A stretch of 32,000 nt of DNA from positions 11,796-43,795 of the forward strand of contig JBHLMI010000020.1 in assembly GCA_048938295.1 (NCBI GenBank), in the 5' to 3' direction. Of this stretch, positions 6,097 through 26,575 are shown piece after piece. Numbering within the stretch: the first letter of the stretch is position 1; every line of letters starts with the position of its first letter. The position numbers and the translations under genes were made by a program. The notes under the pieces are model-generated. The model was not told the DNA's origin. It saw nothing but the letters and a program-made list of their open reading frames with translations, and did no database searches. Source of the stretch: Promethearchaeota archaeon (GTDB lineage: Archaea > Asgardarchaeota > Hermodarchaeia > Hermodarchaeales > Hermodarchaeaceae).

Positions 6097-6546
6097 CTAG
6101 TCGAGTTGCCTTATTTTGGATTCAACATGCATTTTACTGGCAACTGACCGAGAGACGTGACAATATTTCTCGGTTAAAGTCACTGCTCGTTGGACCTGTT
6201 GAAGGTTTGCCTCTTTGGGTATAGTGATGTTCATGGTGACGTAGATGTCGGAGAAATACCACCCTCCTTCAGGATGCTGACGTAATACTGCACGTCCCAG
6301 AGCTTGATGGGCTATTAGTGGTTGTTTCATTCGTTTCATCATACTAGCAAAGGTGGTGATATAACATCCCGTGACTGCGGACACGAAGAGATCCTGTGGT
6401 GAATAAACATCAGGTTTTCCATCCCAATAAACCGGCGCACTTATTGGCAACTCCGTTTTTCCAACTAAGCTGATGGTGCCTTCCTTGCCTCCGGTCCAAG
6501 TGACGGTTACATCAAATTCAATGGTTTTTGGTGTCTCGTCACCCAT
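6097..6546 (-). CDS. OsmC/Ohr family protein
   Basis: SPQDLFVSAVTGC...TEKYCHVSRS two-Cys OsmC pattern; start refined to ATG 6546. Confidence 0.88.
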   Translation of the reverse strand: MGDETPKTIEFDVTVTWTGGKEGTISLVGKTELPISAPVYWDGKPDVYSPQDLFVSAVTGCYITTFASMMKRMKQPLIAHQALGRAVLRQHPEGGWYFSDIYVTMNITIPKEANLQQVQRAVTLTEKYCHVSRSVASKMHVESKIRQLD

Positions 6547-6701
6547 TGATGATCCCTTCCTCGGCACTGACTTACTCGGGGTTTTTAGCTCTTCGGGAGA
6601 TTCGAACCGTCGGTAAAGATGCAACTGCGAAAGAAGTATTAGGTATCCTATATGACAGAATGTGTACTTTAGAGAGTATAGATAGAATTGAGGAGCTTAC
6701 A

Positions 6702-7823
6702 ATGACAGGAAGTTTCGCTAATATGGATCCCTTGGAAGTGCAAAAGGCCTTCCGAGATGCTGAACTTGCACAGAAAGCAGCGCAGAGAATCAAAGAACTA
6801 GCGAAGACGCGTTCCTTCAAGTTTATGCATCTGTGTGGAACACACGAGTATACTATTACACATTCGGGGCTTCGCCAGCTGTTACCTGAGAACGTGGAAT
6901 TAATCGCTGGTCCAGGATGTCCTGTTTGTGTCTGCCCACCTGAAGATGTCGCATTAGCAATTATGGTGGCAAAGCAGCCCAATGCCCTACTCACCACTTA
7001 CGGGGATATGATGCGAGTCCCAGCAGGTGACCTTGGGTCATTGAATACAGCACGCACCCAAGGAGCTCATGTGCAGGTCGTGTACAGCATGATGGATGCA
7101 ATCATTGCTGCTAAAGAACATCCCGACAAAGAAGTCGTCCACTTTGCAATTGGCTTTGAAACGACAACGCCTCCAACCGCTGCAGAAATTCTGGGAGATC
7201 CCCCCACAAATTTCAGTGTCTTGGTAAGTCATCGTCTCATTCCACCCGCTGAAGAATTTCTGCTTAAACAGGGCGAGGTCGGATTGCACGGTTTTCTTCT
7301 ACCAGGTCATGTTTCTGTCATCATTGGCGAGCAGGGATACGAGCACATATCTAAACGATGGAAAGTTCCTCAGGTTGTTGCTGGGTTTGAACCTTTGGAT
7401 GTGCTACTCGCCCTTGTGATGTTATTACAGCAAATTAAAGATGGTCGTGGAGAGGTTGAAAACGAATACACACGCGCTGTTACCTACGAAGGGAACGTCC
7501 GAGCCCAACAAATGATTGAACAAGTGTTCCAGCCAGTAGACTCACGGTGGCGTGGAATTGGTGTCATTCCGGAATCGGGTCTAGCCTTGCGTGAGAAATA
7601 CATGAATTTCGATGTGCGAACACGGTTTGAGATAGAAGTGGAACCACAAAAATATGAAATGCCTCCTGGATGTAAATGTGGTGAGGTGCTCCGTGGTATT
7701 ATGAGACCTGAGGAATGTCCACTCTTTGGGAACAAGTGTACACCGGAAAACCCCATTGGACCCTGTATGGTGTCTACGGAGGGGACTTGCAGTGTTGTTT
7801 ATGGGGCGCAGATGATTCCTTAG
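6702..7823 (+). CDS. hypD: [NiFe]-hydrogenase maturation protein HypD
   Basis: HLCGTHE, GPGCPVCV, GFETT, PGHVS, GFEPLD, CxCG..L.G...P.ECPLFG..C.P..P.GPCMVS.EG.C; start refined to ATG 6702 (SD GAGGAG). Confidence 0.97.
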   Translation: MTGSFANMDPLEVQKAFRDAELAQKAAQRIKELAKTRSFKFMHLCGTHEYTITHSGLRQLLPENVELIAGPGCPVCVCPPEDVALAIMVAKQPNALLTTYGDMMRVPAGDLGSLNTARTQGAHVQVVYSMMDAIIAAKEHPDKEVVHFAIGFETTTPPTAAEILGDPPTNFSVLVSHRLIPPAEEFLLKQGEVGLHGFLLPGHVSVIIGEQGYEHISKRWKVPQVVAGFEPLDVLLALVMLLQQIKDGRGEVENEYTRAVTYEGNVRAQQMIEQVFQPVDSRWRGIGVIPESGLALREKYMNFDVRTRFEIEVEPQKYEMPPGCKCGEVLRGIMRPEECPLFGNKCTPENPIGPCMVSTEGTCSVVYGAQMIP

Positions 7824-9187: not shown

Positions 9188-11023
9188 TCATAAATCATCG
9201 AGTCCGACTTTTTTAAGGGCAGCGGCTGAAGGGTGACCCGTCTTCCGGTCCCAGTCTCGGTAGGCATAGTAGTCATTTAGTTGCTTTTCAATGTCAGGAA
9301 CCATACCATGTGTGCCACCATTGGGAAGGGGCTGAAGCAGAAGTGTGGGAAGCCGGTCATCTTCGGGTGTGAATCCGAGATTAAGGTTGATGAGCCTTTT
9401 CAACGTGATAATCCGGTCTCCAATATGAAGCAGTTCTTGGGGAGTCGTTTTGCGACCAATAACAAGACTATAGAACTGGGCAATCTCAGCCACTGGGAAA
9501 GTAGGGAATTGACAGATGATTAGAGAGTTGGACACTTGGCGCCAGCTTTGTGACTTGGCGGCGATTTCGCCCATGCCTTCATCGGTTTGAGGGTCATCAG
9601 CATCGATTCCCAGCTCCATTTGGACCTGTCCTTGGAGAACCATATACATATCGCCGTCAAGATGGGTACCTCCCCGTGGACTAGTCGCATAGCTAGTCGC
9701 CATACCAAAAAGTGCACGGGGATCCCAACAGGATACTTCAAGACCCTTGACATGGACGGCTAGGTCTTCGGCATCATAGCGTTCTCCCATTGAGCGTACA
9801 CCTTCAGCGAGTATGTCACCAAAACCTTCCCGATGAGCGATCTGCTGGATTAGGTTGATAACTGGACCAGGGTTGCCCCATTCGAGGAGCATCCCCACCT
9901 CTTTGGGTGTCAACTTATCTTGGTTCATGAGGTAGTGGGCAAACCCGATAGAGTTTCCTGTGCTAATCGTGTCTAGACCCAAGTCATCACAGAGATGGCT
10001 CATTGTTAATACAGCATCGAGATTATCGATAAGTAGCATAGAGCCTAGTGCTGCTAGTGTTTCGTACTCGGGTCCAGATACTCGCGGAAGTTTATATTCC
10101 CCATCTGGTACTTCAACAACGCGACCACATTGAATGGGGCACCGGTGGCAGCCATCACGACCTACAAGCCGTGTTTCAGACAGGGTGGCTCCGCTAATGT
10201 TGTCATGAGTGGGAAATTCACCTTGAGTGAAGTATTTGTTAGGCATTGAACCGATTTCTTGCGAAGGACCTACTGCAGTTGCTGTGCCCATCATACGATA
10301 GCAGTCGGGCATGAAATCTTCTATCATGATTTTGTTTGCTGATCGGGCTAGTTCTACAAGTGCATCATGATTTGCCACAGGAACAGGTTGATCACCGACA
10401 ACTGCCACGGCTTTGAGGTATTTACTTCCCATTACAGCGCCAAGACCCATGCGTCCGGCGGCTCTCCCACCTTCAGACATTATGTTTGCGTATTTGACGA
10501 GGTTTTCGCCTGCAGGGCCAATACTAAGGGTGAAGAAGCGTTTTTCATCGATATCTTCGCGCAGCAGTTGTTGCGTTGCAGAAATGGTCTGAGACCAAAG
10601 GTGTTCTGCACTGTGGATTTCCGCATTACCATAAAGGAGTGAAAGATAGAGGGGCTTTTCTGCTCGTCCTTGAATGAGAATTCCATCATATCCTGCTTGT
10701 CGCATTTCAGCACCAAAATATCCTCCTATATCCGATTCGCCCCATAACTGAGTTAACGGTGAACGGGCACAAAGTGCCATGCGGCCAGAACTGGGCACGG
10801 CGGTTCCAACACAGGGTCCGGCCATCAACAGCATAGGGTTATTAGGACCCAATGGTTCCGTTTCCTTTGATAAGAGAGGATAAAGTATTCGAGCTGCAAG
10901 TCCAGCACCCCCAATGAACTGATCAGCCCAATCTAGTGGTGTGGGTGCATCTTTCAAGAGTCCTTTCGTTAAATCGACATGGAGCATTTTTCCGGTGAAG
11001 CCATTTCCGTTCTTCTTTGACAT
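9188..11023 (-). CDS. aor: Tungsten-type aldehyde:ferredoxin oxidoreductase family protein
   Basis: IGGAGLAARIL, RSPLT, GPAGENLVKYANI, GRAAGRMGLGAVMGSKYLKAV, GCHRCPIQCG, GPEYET, CDDLGLDTIS, VKGLE, RGGTH, P.....LKKVGL. Confidence 0.95.
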   Translation of the reverse strand: MSKKNGNGFTGKMLHVDLTKGLLKDAPTPLDWADQFIGGAGLAARILYPLLSKETEPLGPNNPMLLMAGPCVGTAVPSSGRMALCARSPLTQLWGESDIGGYFGAEMRQAGYDGILIQGRAEKPLYLSLLYGNAEIHSAEHLWSQTISATQQLLREDIDEKRFFTLSIGPAGENLVKYANIMSEGGRAAGRMGLGAVMGSKYLKAVAVVGDQPVPVANHDALVELARSANKIMIEDFMPDCYRMMGTATAVGPSQEIGSMPNKYFTQGEFPTHDNISGATLSETRLVGRDGCHRCPIQCGRVVEVPDGEYKLPRVSGPEYETLAALGSMLLIDNLDAVLTMSHLCDDLGLDTISTGNSIGFAHYLMNQDKLTPKEVGMLLEWGNPGPVINLIQQIAHREGFGDILAEGVRSMGERYDAEDLAVHVKGLEVSCWDPRALFGMATSYATSPRGGTHLDGDMYMVLQGQVQMELGIDADDPQTDEGMGEIAAKSQSWRQVSNSLIICQFPTFPVAEIAQFYSLVIGRKTTPQELLHIGDRIITLKRLINLNLGFTPEDDRLPTLLLQPLPNGGTHGMVPDIEKQLNDYYAYRDWDRKTGHPSAAALKKVGLDDL

Positions 11024-21758: not shown

Positions 21759-21869
21759 GTAGGGGTCCTAGGGGACCTGTTCTAGTTTTTATACGGGATT
21801 GTCAATCGTGCTTGTCTAGGAGGACAGTTGTTCTTTTCATTTTGCTTATATACACTCGTTGAGTAAGGA

Positions 21870-23300
21870 TTGAGGCTAGCGAACTGTGTGTTGTGTGGTT
21901 CTAGGTTGAAAGGGTATGCTAAATGGCTAACATTTGCCCTGTTCGGGTTTTGCCTATTATTCTTCATATCTCCAGTTCAGGTGGGTGCGCAACCACCAGA
22001 AAGCTGGGTGCCTGGTAGTGAACGCCACTTCTTTGGCCATACCTTCGCTGAGGATTCGTGGACTAATGATTCCATAGTTTTTGAATCAGTAGAGAACGCT
22101 TCGGTCCAATTCATCGCCAGTTACCTGAACTATAAGGAAGGACCACGTTCATTTCAGGCCATGCTCCTAGCACTAGGAGTGATTGAGAACGAAAACGGTA
22201 CACAATCGACGCTTCCTTACCAGCTCTTCGGGTTGCATTTCACGACGAAGGGAGGACGGGATATCTTCGCCGGTTCGTTGTTAGCTTTCTTATTTGGATT
22301 CAATGACACTGATCACAACGGAATTCCAAGCCCTGGCGAGAACCGGTTTTTCATCATCCCGTATGGATATAATGAGGGGAACGCGACGGAGCCATTAACG
22401 GTCGAAGCGATTCCTGTGACGAAGTTGGGAGATGACCACTATCAGTTTGGGATTCGGTATCGGAACTTGTATGGTCGGTTGGTGTCAGCGAATAGTGAGG
22501 CTGATTTTTTGTGGACATTGATTGTTCCGTTCTTTGAAATCTCATTTAGCGAATTGACAGTAGTTTACGATGTCCAAGTAGATGTCGAGAGTGGAGAAAT
22601 CACCACTGAAACCTATTATACGATAGGTCAGGTTACCGAATTTCGGTTTCTTGGTATTCCAGTGCCCAACTTCCACGAGTCACTGAAGGATGTGGGAATC
22701 GGTGTTGCCCATTTGGGCATCATCTTGACAACTAGATATTATGCACGAACCGTTCCCTCAACGCCGATAAGTGGAACGGATCACACCCTTGTCAATATCT
22801 CGACGGACGCGGCGGGACGAAATCGAGCTTTCGCTGTGACCACTTGGGGAACCTACGATGTTCTCAATGAAAGTACACAGCCCATTTCACTAGTTCAAAG
22901 TGGCCTTCCCGCGTACAGTTGGATTCTCACCCCACAGCCAATTGACTTGGTCCTTTTACTCTGGCAGTTACCGATTTCAGCTAACATTTTCAGCATTTTT
23001 GCCTATGCCATGAGCGCGTACCTTCAAGACAATTTCGATGGGCCGCGAGACGTATATAATAACGCAGATCTAATCTTCAATGGCGCCGCTTTCTGGTATG
23101 GGACCACGTTTCCTAAATCGCAGGGGTATCGTGTTGAGTATGATCCCGTTTATACCGCGTTTTCAAATATCGGACAAGCCACGAATGTTCTGGGAGTGGT
23201 CCTCATCGGAACAGTGGTATTAGTCGCACTCATTATTGTGGTTCTACGCGTAGTGCGATCTAATGGCCGTAAGAAGCTCGCAGCTGAAATGGAAGCGTAA
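21870..23300 (+). CDS. Secreted, C-terminally membrane-anchored glycoprotein of unknown family, paralog A
   Basis: Signal peptide (...LLFFISPVQVGA-QPP), at least 7 N-x-S/T sequons, DTDHNG motif, C-terminal TM plus basic tail; start possibly TTG 21906. Confidence 0.85.
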   Translation: MRLANCVLCGSRLKGYAKWLTFALFGFCLLFFISPVQVGAQPPESWVPGSERHFFGHTFAEDSWTNDSIVFESVENASVQFIASYLNYKEGPRSFQAMLLALGVIENENGTQSTLPYQLFGLHFTTKGGRDIFAGSLLAFLFGFNDTDHNGIPSPGENRFFIIPYGYNEGNATEPLTVEAIPVTKLGDDHYQFGIRYRNLYGRLVSANSEADFLWTLIVPFFEISFSELTVVYDVQVDVESGEITTETYYTIGQVTEFRFLGIPVPNFHESLKDVGIGVAHLGIILTTRYYARTVPSTPISGTDHTLVNISTDAAGRNRAFAVTTWGTYDVLNESTQPISLVQSGLPAYSWILTPQPIDLVLLLWQLPISANIFSIFAYAMSAYLQDNFDGPRDVYNNADLIFNGAAFWYGTTFPKSQGYRVEYDPVYTAFSNIGQATNVLGVVLIGTVVLVALIIVVLRVVRSNGRKKLAAEMEA

Positions 23301-23425
23301 GGTGTTGACGATATGTATAAAGGCGCAATTTCCTCAGTGAGTATAGAAGGTGGCTACTCCAACTTTTACGGAGAGCAGTCTATGGACTTTAAGTTATGAC
23401 AAGATACTGGGGATGAAACCGACCA

Positions 23426-24172
23426 ATGACGGATTTGGACGAATTTCTTACTGCGATTGGCCATCCGTTACGTCGTCAAATCCTTGAAACTGTCTACGAA
23501 ACCCCAGGTATCTCCTATTCACAAATCCTTGCGCGAATGAATATTTCCAGCGGTAAACTTAATTTCCATTTACAGCGGTTGGAACCGTTTCTTGCCCAAG
23601 TTAATGGTGAATACCAGATTTCTAATGAAGGTTTGAAGCTGTATCGGACATGGAAAATGCTGGAAGGTCGCCTCAGCGGAACCCAAATCACAGGCACGGC
23701 TACTCCTGGACTTTTTGTAGGTCGTCGGACGTTGGCATTTCTTATCGACGTCATATTAATCCTGTCTGTGCTATTCATTGCAGCAGATTTTTCGTCAGCA
23801 TTCACATTAGTTCCAGCTTGGTGGCTCAGTGGATTTCCCCTGCCCCTTTTCGTCACAAGGATTGTTGACACGTTTCTAATCTACCCCGATTTGACAGTTG
23901 TCCTGATCCGTGCCTTCATTGTGGCGATTTTGTGGATGTATTTCACCTTACTAGAGGGCTATCGGGGACAATCACTTGGTAAGATGATACTGGGGATTCG
24001 CATCGTAGATGTGAGTGGTGCCCGTGTCGCTCAACAACCCGCGGCAATCCGGGCTCTCACTAAGGTGCTCATCTTACCTTTCGACATTCTGGTAGGACTA
24101 ATTAAATCACGTAAGGCAGGATTTCTCCGGTTCTTCGGGCAATATACTCGGAGCTGGGTTGTTCGGAACTAA
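23426..24172 (+). CDS. ArsR-like winged-HTH fused to an RDD-family membrane domain
   Basis: AIGHPLRRQIL...ISYSQI...ISSGKLNFHL..L wHTH; RRTLAFLID...YFTLLEG..GQSLGKM.LGIRIV...R RDD motifs. Confidence 0.88.
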   Translation: MTDLDEFLTAIGHPLRRQILETVYETPGISYSQILARMNISSGKLNFHLQRLEPFLAQVNGEYQISNEGLKLYRTWKMLEGRLSGTQITGTATPGLFVGRRTLAFLIDVILILSVLFIAADFSSAFTLVPAWWLSGFPLPLFVTRIVDTFLIYPDLTVVLIRAFIVAILWMYFTLLEGYRGQSLGKMILGIRIVDVSGARVAQQPAAIRALTKVLILPFDILVGLIKSRKAGFLRFFGQYTRSWVVRN

Positions 24173-24206
24173 CCAACCCGTTCTACTCGGAAAATCTTAG
24201 TAAACC

Positions 24207-24250
24207 TTAGTTTTCTAGACTGAAAACTAAACTTATCAGCTTCTTTAAAT
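24207..24250 (+). promoter_or_regulatory. Palindromic operator plus TATA box of paralog B
   Basis: Perfect TTAGTTTTC-N6-GAAAACTAA (24207-24230), 13 nt upstream of TTTAAAT (24244-24250). Confidence 0.6.
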
Positions 24251-24327
24251 TCGTCATTTGAGAGGGAGAGCTAACGAGCAAACACTTGCCGATAACGGTA
24301 AAGATGTGCTTAAAATTGATAAGCAAA

Positions 24328-25722
24328 ATGAAAACCATTCCAATAGTGGCTCTAGCGCTTGCATTGACAGTTGTCTTGGCTCCAATGACTACTACCGCCC
24401 TCCCACCTGAGACATATGTTCCAGGCAGTGAAGCAGCGATCTTTGATCACACATTCGCTGAGCATTTCTGGAGTAGCACGAAGACATTCACAAACGAGAC
24501 ATCAGGTGACAGTATCGAGATCATCATGCACAGCGTCAATTACCAAGGTGCTGGTGAATTCCAAGCGGCCCTGTTAGCTCTGGGCGATGTGTATATTGCG
24601 GAAAACGATACCAGTGCGACTTTACCCTATCAAATCTTCGGCATGCACTTCACAACTCCTGAAGGACATGAAATGTTTACTGGGGCAATTTTTGCCTTCA
24701 TGTTTGCCTTTAACGACACAAATGGCAACAATGTTCATAATCCCGGAGAAGATCAATGGTTTGTCATTCCATATGGATATGATAATCCAGAAAGCAATCA
24801 CACTGGCACTGATCCCACCGTTGAATCCATTGATATGACTAATCCCAATCCTGGTGAATACCGTTTTGGCGTTAGCTACAAGAATCTCTACGCGCGACTA
24901 GTTTCCACAGAAAATTGGTTAGCCTTCTGGCTAACCTTAGCAGTACCTTTCGTTGAAGTCCAAATTAGTGAACTGACATTCGAATATGTCATCAACGTAG
25001 ATGAATCGACTGGTGAAATTACCGCTGAAACTTTCTACACCATTGGGCAGGTCCAATCCTTGCATTTCCTCGGTCAGACACTCGATGTTCCTGACCAAGA
25101 AATTCACAACGCCCTAGCCAATGTTACTGTAGGTGTCGCACACCTGATAACAGCATGGGGTTCAACTTATCACGTCCACAACGGAAATCAACTCGATCCT
25201 CAACCTGCGGCCAATTGGATTTACGCAAACATCACTACCGATGCCCTTGGACGAGACCGCGCCTTCGCAGTTGGTGTCCGAGGAACCTATGATCTCCAAA
25301 ACGAAACAACTGAACCTTACCCAACGCTCAACGCAAGTCTTCCAGCATATAGTTGGATCTTGTCGCCTGCGCTCTTTTCACTTGAAACGTTGCTTGTGCT
25401 CTGGCAATTACCACTCTCAGCAGACTTTCTAGCTTTGTGGGCGTACGCTATCAGTCCAACGATGCAATCGATGTACACTGGACCTCGCGCGCTCTACCAA
25501 CACGCCTATGAAAACTTTAACAAGATTGCCTTCTGGTACGCAATCACCTTCCCCAAGTTTGGCGGATATCGTATTGTCCACGATCCCGTGTATACAGCCT
25601 ACTCCAATGTTGGACAGGTTGCACCTCCAGGTATCCCCGGATTCCCATGGGAAGCCATCCTGATTGGCGTCGTCGTCTGCGTGGTTGCTGTCTTCCTCGT
25701 TCGCCGCCGTAAGAAAGCGTAA
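24328..25722 (+). CDS. Secreted glycoprotein of unknown family, paralog B, with a PGF-type C-terminal sorting signal
   Basis: MKTIPIVALALALTVVLAPMTTTA signal peptide; 8 sequons; collinear motifs with paralog A; ends PGIPGFPWEAILIGVVVCVVAVFLVRRRKKA. Confidence 0.87.
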   Translation: MKTIPIVALALALTVVLAPMTTTALPPETYVPGSEAAIFDHTFAEHFWSSTKTFTNETSGDSIEIIMHSVNYQGAGEFQAALLALGDVYIAENDTSATLPYQIFGMHFTTPEGHEMFTGAIFAFMFAFNDTNGNNVHNPGEDQWFVIPYGYDNPESNHTGTDPTVESIDMTNPNPGEYRFGVSYKNLYARLVSTENWLAFWLTLAVPFVEVQISELTFEYVINVDESTGEITAETFYTIGQVQSLHFLGQTLDVPDQEIHNALANVTVGVAHLITAWGSTYHVHNGNQLDPQPAANWIYANITTDALGRDRAFAVGVRGTYDLQNETTEPYPTLNASLPAYSWILSPALFSLETLLVLWQLPLSADFLALWAYAISPTMQSMYTGPRALYQHAYENFNKIAFWYAITFPKFGGYRIVHDPVYTAYSNVGQVAPPGIPGFPWEAILIGVVVCVVAVFLVRRRKKA

Positions 25723-25879: not shown

Positions 25880-26575
25880 ATGCCTATCCGGGAAATCATC
25901 GAAATTGATGAAGAGAAATGCACGGGCTGTGGCGAATGTATTCCCAACTGCGCTGAAGGCGCATTACAGATCATCGATGGGAAAGCGAAGCTGATTCGCG
26001 ATGATCTATGTGATGGGCTTGGCGCGTGTCTAGGTCATTGCCATATAGGTGCATTGAAGATTATCCACCGAGAAGCCCCAGACTTTGATGAAGAAGCCGT
26101 GGAAAAGCACCTGGCTAAAAGTGTGCCAGCAGGATGTGTGTCCTGCGATGTTAAAGTTGATGGACTCACCGCTGGAACCACAACCCATCTTAGCGGAGAG
26201 GTCGTGCCTATTGGACAGCGACAATGGCCGATTGCATTACGGTTGGTTTCGGTCAATGCCCCGTTTTTCAAGGAGTCCGACTTGTTAGTTGTCGCCGATT
26301 GTGTACCCTTTTCCTATCCGCAGTTTCAGCAGGAATTCTTGAAGGACCGAGTGCTGGTTTATGGGTGTCCGAAGTTCGATAATGCTCAGTATTATGTGGA
26401 GAAACTCACAGAGATTTTTCAGAACAATTCCATCAAAAGTGTAACAATGGTGAAGATGGAAGTCCCCTGTTGTTCCGGTCTCCAACGAATCGTTGAACTC
26501 GCGCTCAAGCAATCTGGGAAAAAAATCTTAGTGAAAAACATCACCATTTCATTACAAGGATCAAAGAAGCCGTAG
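25880..26575 (+). CDS. 4Fe-4S dicluster protein of the family usually found beside hybrid-cluster (Hcp) and stress genes
   Basis: CTGCGECIPNCAEGA, CDGLGACLGHC, QWP..L.LV, ADC, GCPKFD, MEVPCC. Confidence 0.85.
   Translation: MPIREIIEIDEEKCTGCGECIPNCAEGALQIIDGKAKLIRDDLCDGLGACLGHCHIGALKIIHREAPDFDEEAVEKHLAKSVPAGCVSCDVKVDGLTAGTTTHLSGEVVPIGQRQWPIALRLVSVNAPFFKESDLLVVADCVPFSYPQFQQEFLKDRVLVYGCPKFDNAQYYVEKLTEIFQNNSIKSVTMVKMEVPCCSGLQRIVELALKQSGKKILVKNITISLQGSKKP

Follow-up and report, generated by a model that had tools for sequence, protein, structure and literature searches.

Paired GLMP-like surface glycoproteins and a membrane-tethered winged-helix regulator form a candidate envelope-sensing module in one Asgard genus

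Membrane-tethered one-component regulators that act with co-sensors are known from bacteria, with ToxR/ToxS and CadC/LysP as examples, and archaeal surface proteins with a PGF-CTERM signal, such as the Haloferax S-layer glycoprotein, are archaeosortase substrates. Among eukaryotic proteins, GLMP (NCU-G1; PF15065; PDB 6NYQ and 8R8Q chain B) is an accessory subunit of the lysosomal dipeptide transporter MFSD1, and galactose-mutarotase-like supersandwich domains occur in aldose 1-epimerases and as domains of polysaccharide lyase (PL), glycoside hydrolase (GH) and GH94 enzymes, including cellodextrin phosphorylase (5NZ7/5NZ8). Here we analyse a three-gene locus that shares features with these systems. 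It lies in a 32,000-nucleotide stretch of DNA (the window; contig JBHLMI010000020.1, positions 11,796 to 43,795) from the 2.5-Mb, 91.6% complete genome of an Asgard archaeon of the Hermodarchaeales, and encodes two paralogous surface proteins, A and B, with a membrane-bound winged helix-turn-helix (wHTH) protein, R, between them. All three genes are on the forward strand, as are the domains, promoter elements and TATA boxes given below. We favour, with some reserve, the sequence-based reading that A, R and B form a co-regulated envelope-sensing module specific to one Asgard genus; that the surface pair is functionally tied to the transmembrane wHTH regulator is supported by several features of these genes and their relatives.

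Both surface-protein genes are preceded by the same 28-nt element, TTnTCTAGn6AnnTn3CTnnTCA (A promoter, 21812-21839; B promoter, 24211-24238), which was recognised in an alignment of ten promoters from five loci and ends 6 nt before the TATA box of each gene (TTATATA at 21846-21852 for A, TTTAAAT at 24244-24250 for B). Its 16 specified bases are invariant in the ten promoters, and 11 further genomes of the genus carry it upstream of A and B with 0-1 mismatches at those 16 positions. Within the element, two boxes resembling TTxTC(T)AG are spaced by about 20 nt. The copy at B overlaps a 9-6-9 palindrome (24208-24231). The pattern occurs three times in the 2.5-Mb genome, at the A promoter, at the B promoter and at a position that we regard as a chance match because it is intragenic and has no TATA box. 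Eight genomes that have no R, the sister genus included, lack the element upstream of their single-copy homologues. Two further candidates were rejected: a half-site at 21782-21790 is not part of the conserved element, which starts at 21812, and a one-mismatch copy just 3′ of a distant R homologue (L021) was set aside as evidence, since L018, L030 and L031, the equivalent loci, do not conserve it. These distant, Bathyarchaeia-type wHTH-RDD genes have a different conserved repeat, TTTGCAA-n-TTGCAAA, on their 3′ side (L018:6715-6760, L021:6720-6745, L030/L031:4730-4790), followed by a small wHTH gene (110-131 aa) or the gene of a 178-aa exported protein. The open frames of A (21870-23300, 476 aa) and B (24286-25722, 478 aa) probably begin at a TTG at 21906 (MKGYAKW...) and an ATG at 24328 (MKTIPIV...), respectively, each yielding a protein of 464 aa, because these starts lie downstream of the TATA boxes and the orthologues are about 460 aa long.

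The gene between the paralogues (23426-24172, 248 aa) encodes a wHTH-RDD membrane protein, as had been proposed in the initial annotation of this DNA. R matches the Pfam models RDD (PF06271; 52.7 bits, cut-off 24.1), DUF7347 (34.9 bits, cut-off 27.6) and HTH_24; the wHTH is N-terminal (23438-23650), the polytopic RDD membrane domain spans 23717-24097, and hydropathy indicates three strong transmembrane (TM) segments behind the wHTH (residues 102-120, 158-176 and 208-226). Identity among orthologues is 62-93% for R versus 42-66% for A and B. An alignment of R orthologues also revealed an insert in the RDD domain, PAWWLxGxPxPxF, that is specific to the clade linked to A and B and absent in distant wHTH-RDD proteins.

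The phyletic pattern was assessed across 151 sampled genomes of the phylum; the family of A and B (S family) occurs in 46 of them. The triad, with R in the central position, is present in all 15 genomes of the genus, and the other lineages with close homologues (g2, f3, f6 and f26) possess a single family copy and lack an R orthologue. Even where the locus has taken in a ferredoxin gene and R is inverted, R remains between the paralogues. One genome of the genus has an A-position gene broken by an in-frame TGA and matching in two pieces (G110:C129:766-2087), which could be a pseudogene or an assembly error.

Elsewhere in Asgard archaea, related ectodomains are repeatedly joined to wHTH domains by fusion or by adjacency. 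Four protein clusters (the P0190 class) comprise proteins of 730-741 aa in which the ectodomain and a TM helix are followed by HVO_0163_N and HTH_24, with two such ectodomain-TM-wHTH copies in tandem at locus L012, and the same fused wHTH tail is borne by an ectodomain of a second Asgard family, N (described below), at L094. N genes adjoin genes for polytopic DUF7347-wHTH proteins at L069 (source genome), L054 (sister genus) and L066 and L067 (family f4); the wHTH domains of these neighbours share 27-32% identity with that of R, and their membrane domains are unlike RDD. In family f7 (L098) the N gene adjoins a single-pass DUF7343-wHTH protein. The tie between the surface pair and a transmembrane wHTH regulator that the initial annotation had suggested is thus upheld by the shared element, the 15/15 triads and the recurrent wHTH fusions and neighbours.

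A and B might instead be purely structural surface proteins, glycocalyx or S-layer-like, beside which R stands by inherited synteny, regulating other genes or not being a regulator at all. The synteny of the whole block fits this explanation, as do the surface-sorting signal that B has in common with about 12 other open reading frames (ORFs) of the genome and the varied, unrelated neighbours of single-copy homologues elsewhere. We nevertheless consider it unlikely, given that the A/B promoter element is restricted to genomes with R, that the ectodomain is repeatedly fused or adjacent to wHTH domains in other lineages and that R has kept its position after rearrangement.

Several observations weigh against a sensing module. 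About 15 unrelated genes (among them Band_7, ferredoxin, AhpC, NAPRTase, isochorismatase and ferritin) are syntenic across the related loci, and since the genus as a whole shares this gene order, adjacency alone is weak evidence. The triad has a single origin, and its co-occurrence counts as a single evolutionary event. Genes of the A/B family are not found beside distant wHTH-RDD homologues (31-38% identity, Bathyarchaeia-type), and wHTH-RDD genes are not found beside distant A/B homologues. The promoter of R, a region conserved across orthologous loci (23310-23345, CGATATGTATAAAGGCGCAA...), lacks the 28-nt element, and R is for that reason probably not self-regulated through it. Set against these points, the element, its absence where R is missing, the phyletic pattern, the conservation of R together with its insert, and the recurrent wHTH ties make a stronger case for coupling than adjacency does.

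A and B are collinear paralogues with 45% identity over 443 aa (e-value 1e-126), and the motif blocks listed in the initial annotation are visible in their alignment. In each of them, hydropathy and sequence show an ectodomain of about 400 aa between a signal peptide and a single C-terminal TM helix (A, residues 440-458, at 23187-23243; B, residues 454-472), so that the two proteins, initially described as secreted, are better described as type-I membrane-anchored. They contain 7 (A) and 8 (B) N-x-S/T sequons where about 3.4 would be expected from composition. Four sequon columns are kept among 44 family sequences (N143 in 42/44, N171 in 35/44, N315 in 29/44 and N339 in 35/44), in line with the shared conserved sequons noted earlier. 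The loop of the suggested DxDxNG-like calcium-binding motif is conserved only in part, with FNDTxxNGxPxPGE as the consensus.

The C termini separate the two paralogues. The tail of B (IPGFPWEAILIGV...VRRRKK, 25633-25716) matches the Loki-CTERM sorting signal NF033507 at 28.7 bits (cut-off 19.9), whereas the tail of A gives no match to this model and its TM helix lacks a PGF motif. The match of B also marks the source organism as an Asgard archaeon. A Loki-CTERM match is present in 21/44 members of the A/B family, and the source genome has 12 Loki-CTERM ORFs above the cut-off and an exosortase/archaeosortase homologue (TIGR04178; 31.7 bits, cut-off 23). Contig C32 of this genome combines the latter (C32:67585-68112) with six above-cut-off Loki-CTERM matches, five of which are ORFs of 850-970 aa. 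A maximum-likelihood tree shows this split throughout the genus: the two paralogues of each genome comprise a B type, which carries the PGF/Loki-CTERM signal, and an A type, in which a conserved cytoplasmic tail, RxNGRK, takes its place. The single copy of the sister genus is of the PGF type. From this pattern we infer a duplication that left one lipid-anchored copy and one TM-retained copy suited to transmembrane signalling.

The A/B ectodomain represents an archaeal superfamily for which Pfam has no dedicated family, and neither A nor B matched any Pfam or NCBIfam entry beyond the sorting tail. Searches returned about 65 close homologues, with source labels of Hod-, Thor-, Odin- or Promethearchaeota, and an A/B profile search of 1.84 billion representatives returned 201 matches at E<=0.001, all named ones being archaeal (Asgard, Bathyarchaeia or Thermoplasmata). 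The upstream neighbours of two distant homologues (528 aa at L005 and 485 aa at L013) were considered as further paralogues and ruled out by HMM and BLAST comparison. AlphaFold models of full-length B (pLDDT 84.6, pTM 0.80) and of the A ectodomain alone (pLDDT 89.0, pTM 0.88) both show a large beta-supersandwich into which four helices are inserted (B 366-410). Foldseek searches of both models against the PDB gave nothing at E<=0.001, HMM searches of PDB sequences with profiles A1 and A2 gave nothing, phmmer of B against the PDB returned noise only, and shape and feature searches of the ESM Atlas recovered two archaeal clusters only. An alternative is that A and B are held in the membrane as carbohydrate-active enzymes or sugar binders of galactose-mutarotase-like type, acting on envelope or environmental glycans, with R as their substrate-responsive regulator. 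We regard this as very unlikely, since A and B share only 6-12% identity with mutarotases, a correspondence of catalytic residues was not established, the supersandwich domain is usually non-catalytic in lyases and glycosidases, and no enzymatic activity is known for GLMP, the best structural match.

GLMP is the closest structure to the A and B models, which share its beta-sandwich extracytoplasmic fold and its type-I topology (signal peptide, one C-terminal TM helix and short basic cytoplasmic tail). GLMP, initially offered together with LAMP as a weak hypothesis, is the best structural match, and a transitive, motif-level sequence link to it was also found; likeness to LAMP gained no support. 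The Pfam model NCU-G1 (PF15065, cut-off 27 bits) matches neither A, B nor any of the 44 family members, even at E<=10, and searching the source genome with it gave no direct match to A or B. Running the model over 301 Asgard genomes uncovered the second family, N. Its members (320-450 aa) combine a signal peptide and an ectodomain with a TM helix that is preceded by the motif x(H/Y/W)DPxxG and followed by an RRR tail. NCU-G1 is the sole or best Pfam match for six N members (E 9e-7 to 2e-4), one N member exceeds the 27-bit cut-off at 28.7 bits, and 16/42 members match at E<=0.01, no other family recurring meaningfully. The N family is present in 216/301 Asgard genomes and 56/70 genera, at 1-7 copies that are often in tandem, with one copy in the source genome.

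Comparison of the A/B family with the Asgard N family by hhalign gave probabilities of 94.8-95.3% (E 2e-8 to 5e-8) over only 39-42 columns, the aligned core being F..IIEF.D.N.NG in N and F.AFNDT..NG.P.PGE in A/B. When an N profile was searched against 177,635 PDB sequences, GLMP ranked first on the motif aligned to A/B (GLMP 116-161), but with an E of 1.2; with a broader N profile this match was lost and a de novo designed protein was matched through an acidic region. Taking the motif-level transitive link together with the structural one, we put the probability that the family-level homology of A and B with GLMP is real at roughly one half to two thirds. A wider proposal, that an Asgard phylum-wide superfamily of true GLMP (NCU-G1) homologues, type-I surface glycoproteins, serves as extracytoplasmic sensor or partner subunits of membrane-tethered wHTH factors and that eukaryotic GLMP descended from it, is tentative and in our judgement somewhat less probable than its negation. 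The literature that we searched contains no paper joining Asgard archaea, or archaea in general, with GLMP/NCU-G1.

The likeness to GLMP also suggests a role without sensing, in which A and B would, like GLMP, be glycosylated accessory subunits that bind a polytopic membrane protein (a transporter, or R through its RDD domain) and shield it from proteases outside the cell. GLMP being the closest structure with the same topology is in keeping with such a role, and so is the polytopic nature of the membrane proteins encoded by Asgard partner genes. No MFS (major facilitator superfamily) transporter gene adjoins the A, B or N genes examined, however, and the ectodomain-TM fusions to wHTH domains need no polytopic partner, which argues for signalling rather than shielding; we consider shielding improbable.

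Under the sensing-module reading, A and B would be co-regulated type-I membrane N-glycoproteins with a GLMP-like supersandwich ectodomain. B, which keeps the Loki-CTERM, would probably be processed by an archaeosortase and lipid-anchored, and A would have lost this signal, kept a true TM helix and gained the RxNGRK cytoplasmic tail. The RDD domain would hold the wHTH of R at the membrane, where R could bind the 28-nt element abutting the BRE (transcription factor B recognition element) and TATA box of both promoters and set the transcription of A and B, by activation or by repression. The state of the A/B ectodomain (ligand, glycan, occupancy or envelope integrity) may in turn feed back on R through putative A/B-R contact in the membrane.

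Other loci show further arrangements of these families. Outside the window, the source genome holds a second wHTH-ectodomain module (L069:1489-3476; contig C66:16934-18900), in which the gene of a 284-aa DUF7347/HTH_20 wHTH protein with at least 4 TM segments stands immediately 5′ of, and in the same orientation as, that of a 327-aa N-family (NCU-G1-like) type-I membrane protein. At L012 each 730-aa fusion gene is preceded by the gene of a small protein (6116-6799 and 9429-10004; 191-227 aa, N-terminal TM anchor, no family match), which suggests duplication of a two-gene unit. Many Asgard genomes have N genes as asymmetric tandem pairs (L073-L080, L090-L092, L095-L097), the second member of about 430-460 aa having an additional cytoplasmic tail of about 100 aa that has no Pfam match and contains the conserved motif LTAxSxxF...W...EKxxFIKEMLxLxPxER. 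In one genus of another family a single-copy A/B homologue lies beside a co-oriented small Arf-family GTPase gene (L023:4152-4805, L024:6254-6898), and a distant A/B homologue adjoins an Arf/Ras/Roc GTPase at L013:8585-9562. In the window, B is followed by a gene for a 231-aa 4Fe-4S/AF_0155-type protein (25880-26575). This gene also follows B at L003, L004, L006 and L007 and lies 3′ of the single-copy gene of the sister genus (L022), and at L001/L002 it is located between A and R. No Rfam families or tRNAs were found in the window.

For a large group of Asgard proteins labelled as exported and of unknown function, these results supply a fold, a topology and a likely role, and they define a candidate archaeal design for transmembrane signalling in which a GLMP-like ectodomain is combined with a wHTH that is fused to it, carried on RDD or carried on another polytopic anchor, together with a candidate operator. 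If the homology with GLMP is real, a lysosomal membrane glycoprotein gains an archaeal ancestor, which bears on the origin of the eukaryotic endomembrane proteome. On the wider proposal of descent from the archaeal family, GLMP would join the eukaryotic signature proteins as a new entry that links the lysosomal membrane with the archaeal envelope.

Compared with described systems, the locus resembles ToxR/ToxS and CadC/LysP in having a DNA-binding domain at the membrane, an extracytoplasmic sensor that is separate or fused, and target promoters nearby. It differs from ToxR and CadC in that the wHTH is of the archaeal DUF7347/HVO_0163 kind, the anchor is RDD or another polytopic domain, the putative sensor is a GLMP-like supersandwich and the apparent targets are the sensor genes, a pair of asymmetric paralogues. 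Like PGF-CTERM substrates, B ends in PGF, a TM helix and a basic cluster, in a genome with a gene of the exosortase/archaeosortase family; unlike them, A has no signal, and the Loki-CTERM processing of B is predicted. In contrast to mutarotase-like enzymes, A and B are membrane-anchored and stand-alone. Identity between GLMP and A/B is 6-9%, and the A/B ectodomain is about 90 aa longer, with the four-helix insert noted above. The partner of GLMP is an MFS transporter, whereas the putative partner of A and B is a wHTH membrane protein, and GLMP resides in the lysosome, A and B at the cell surface.

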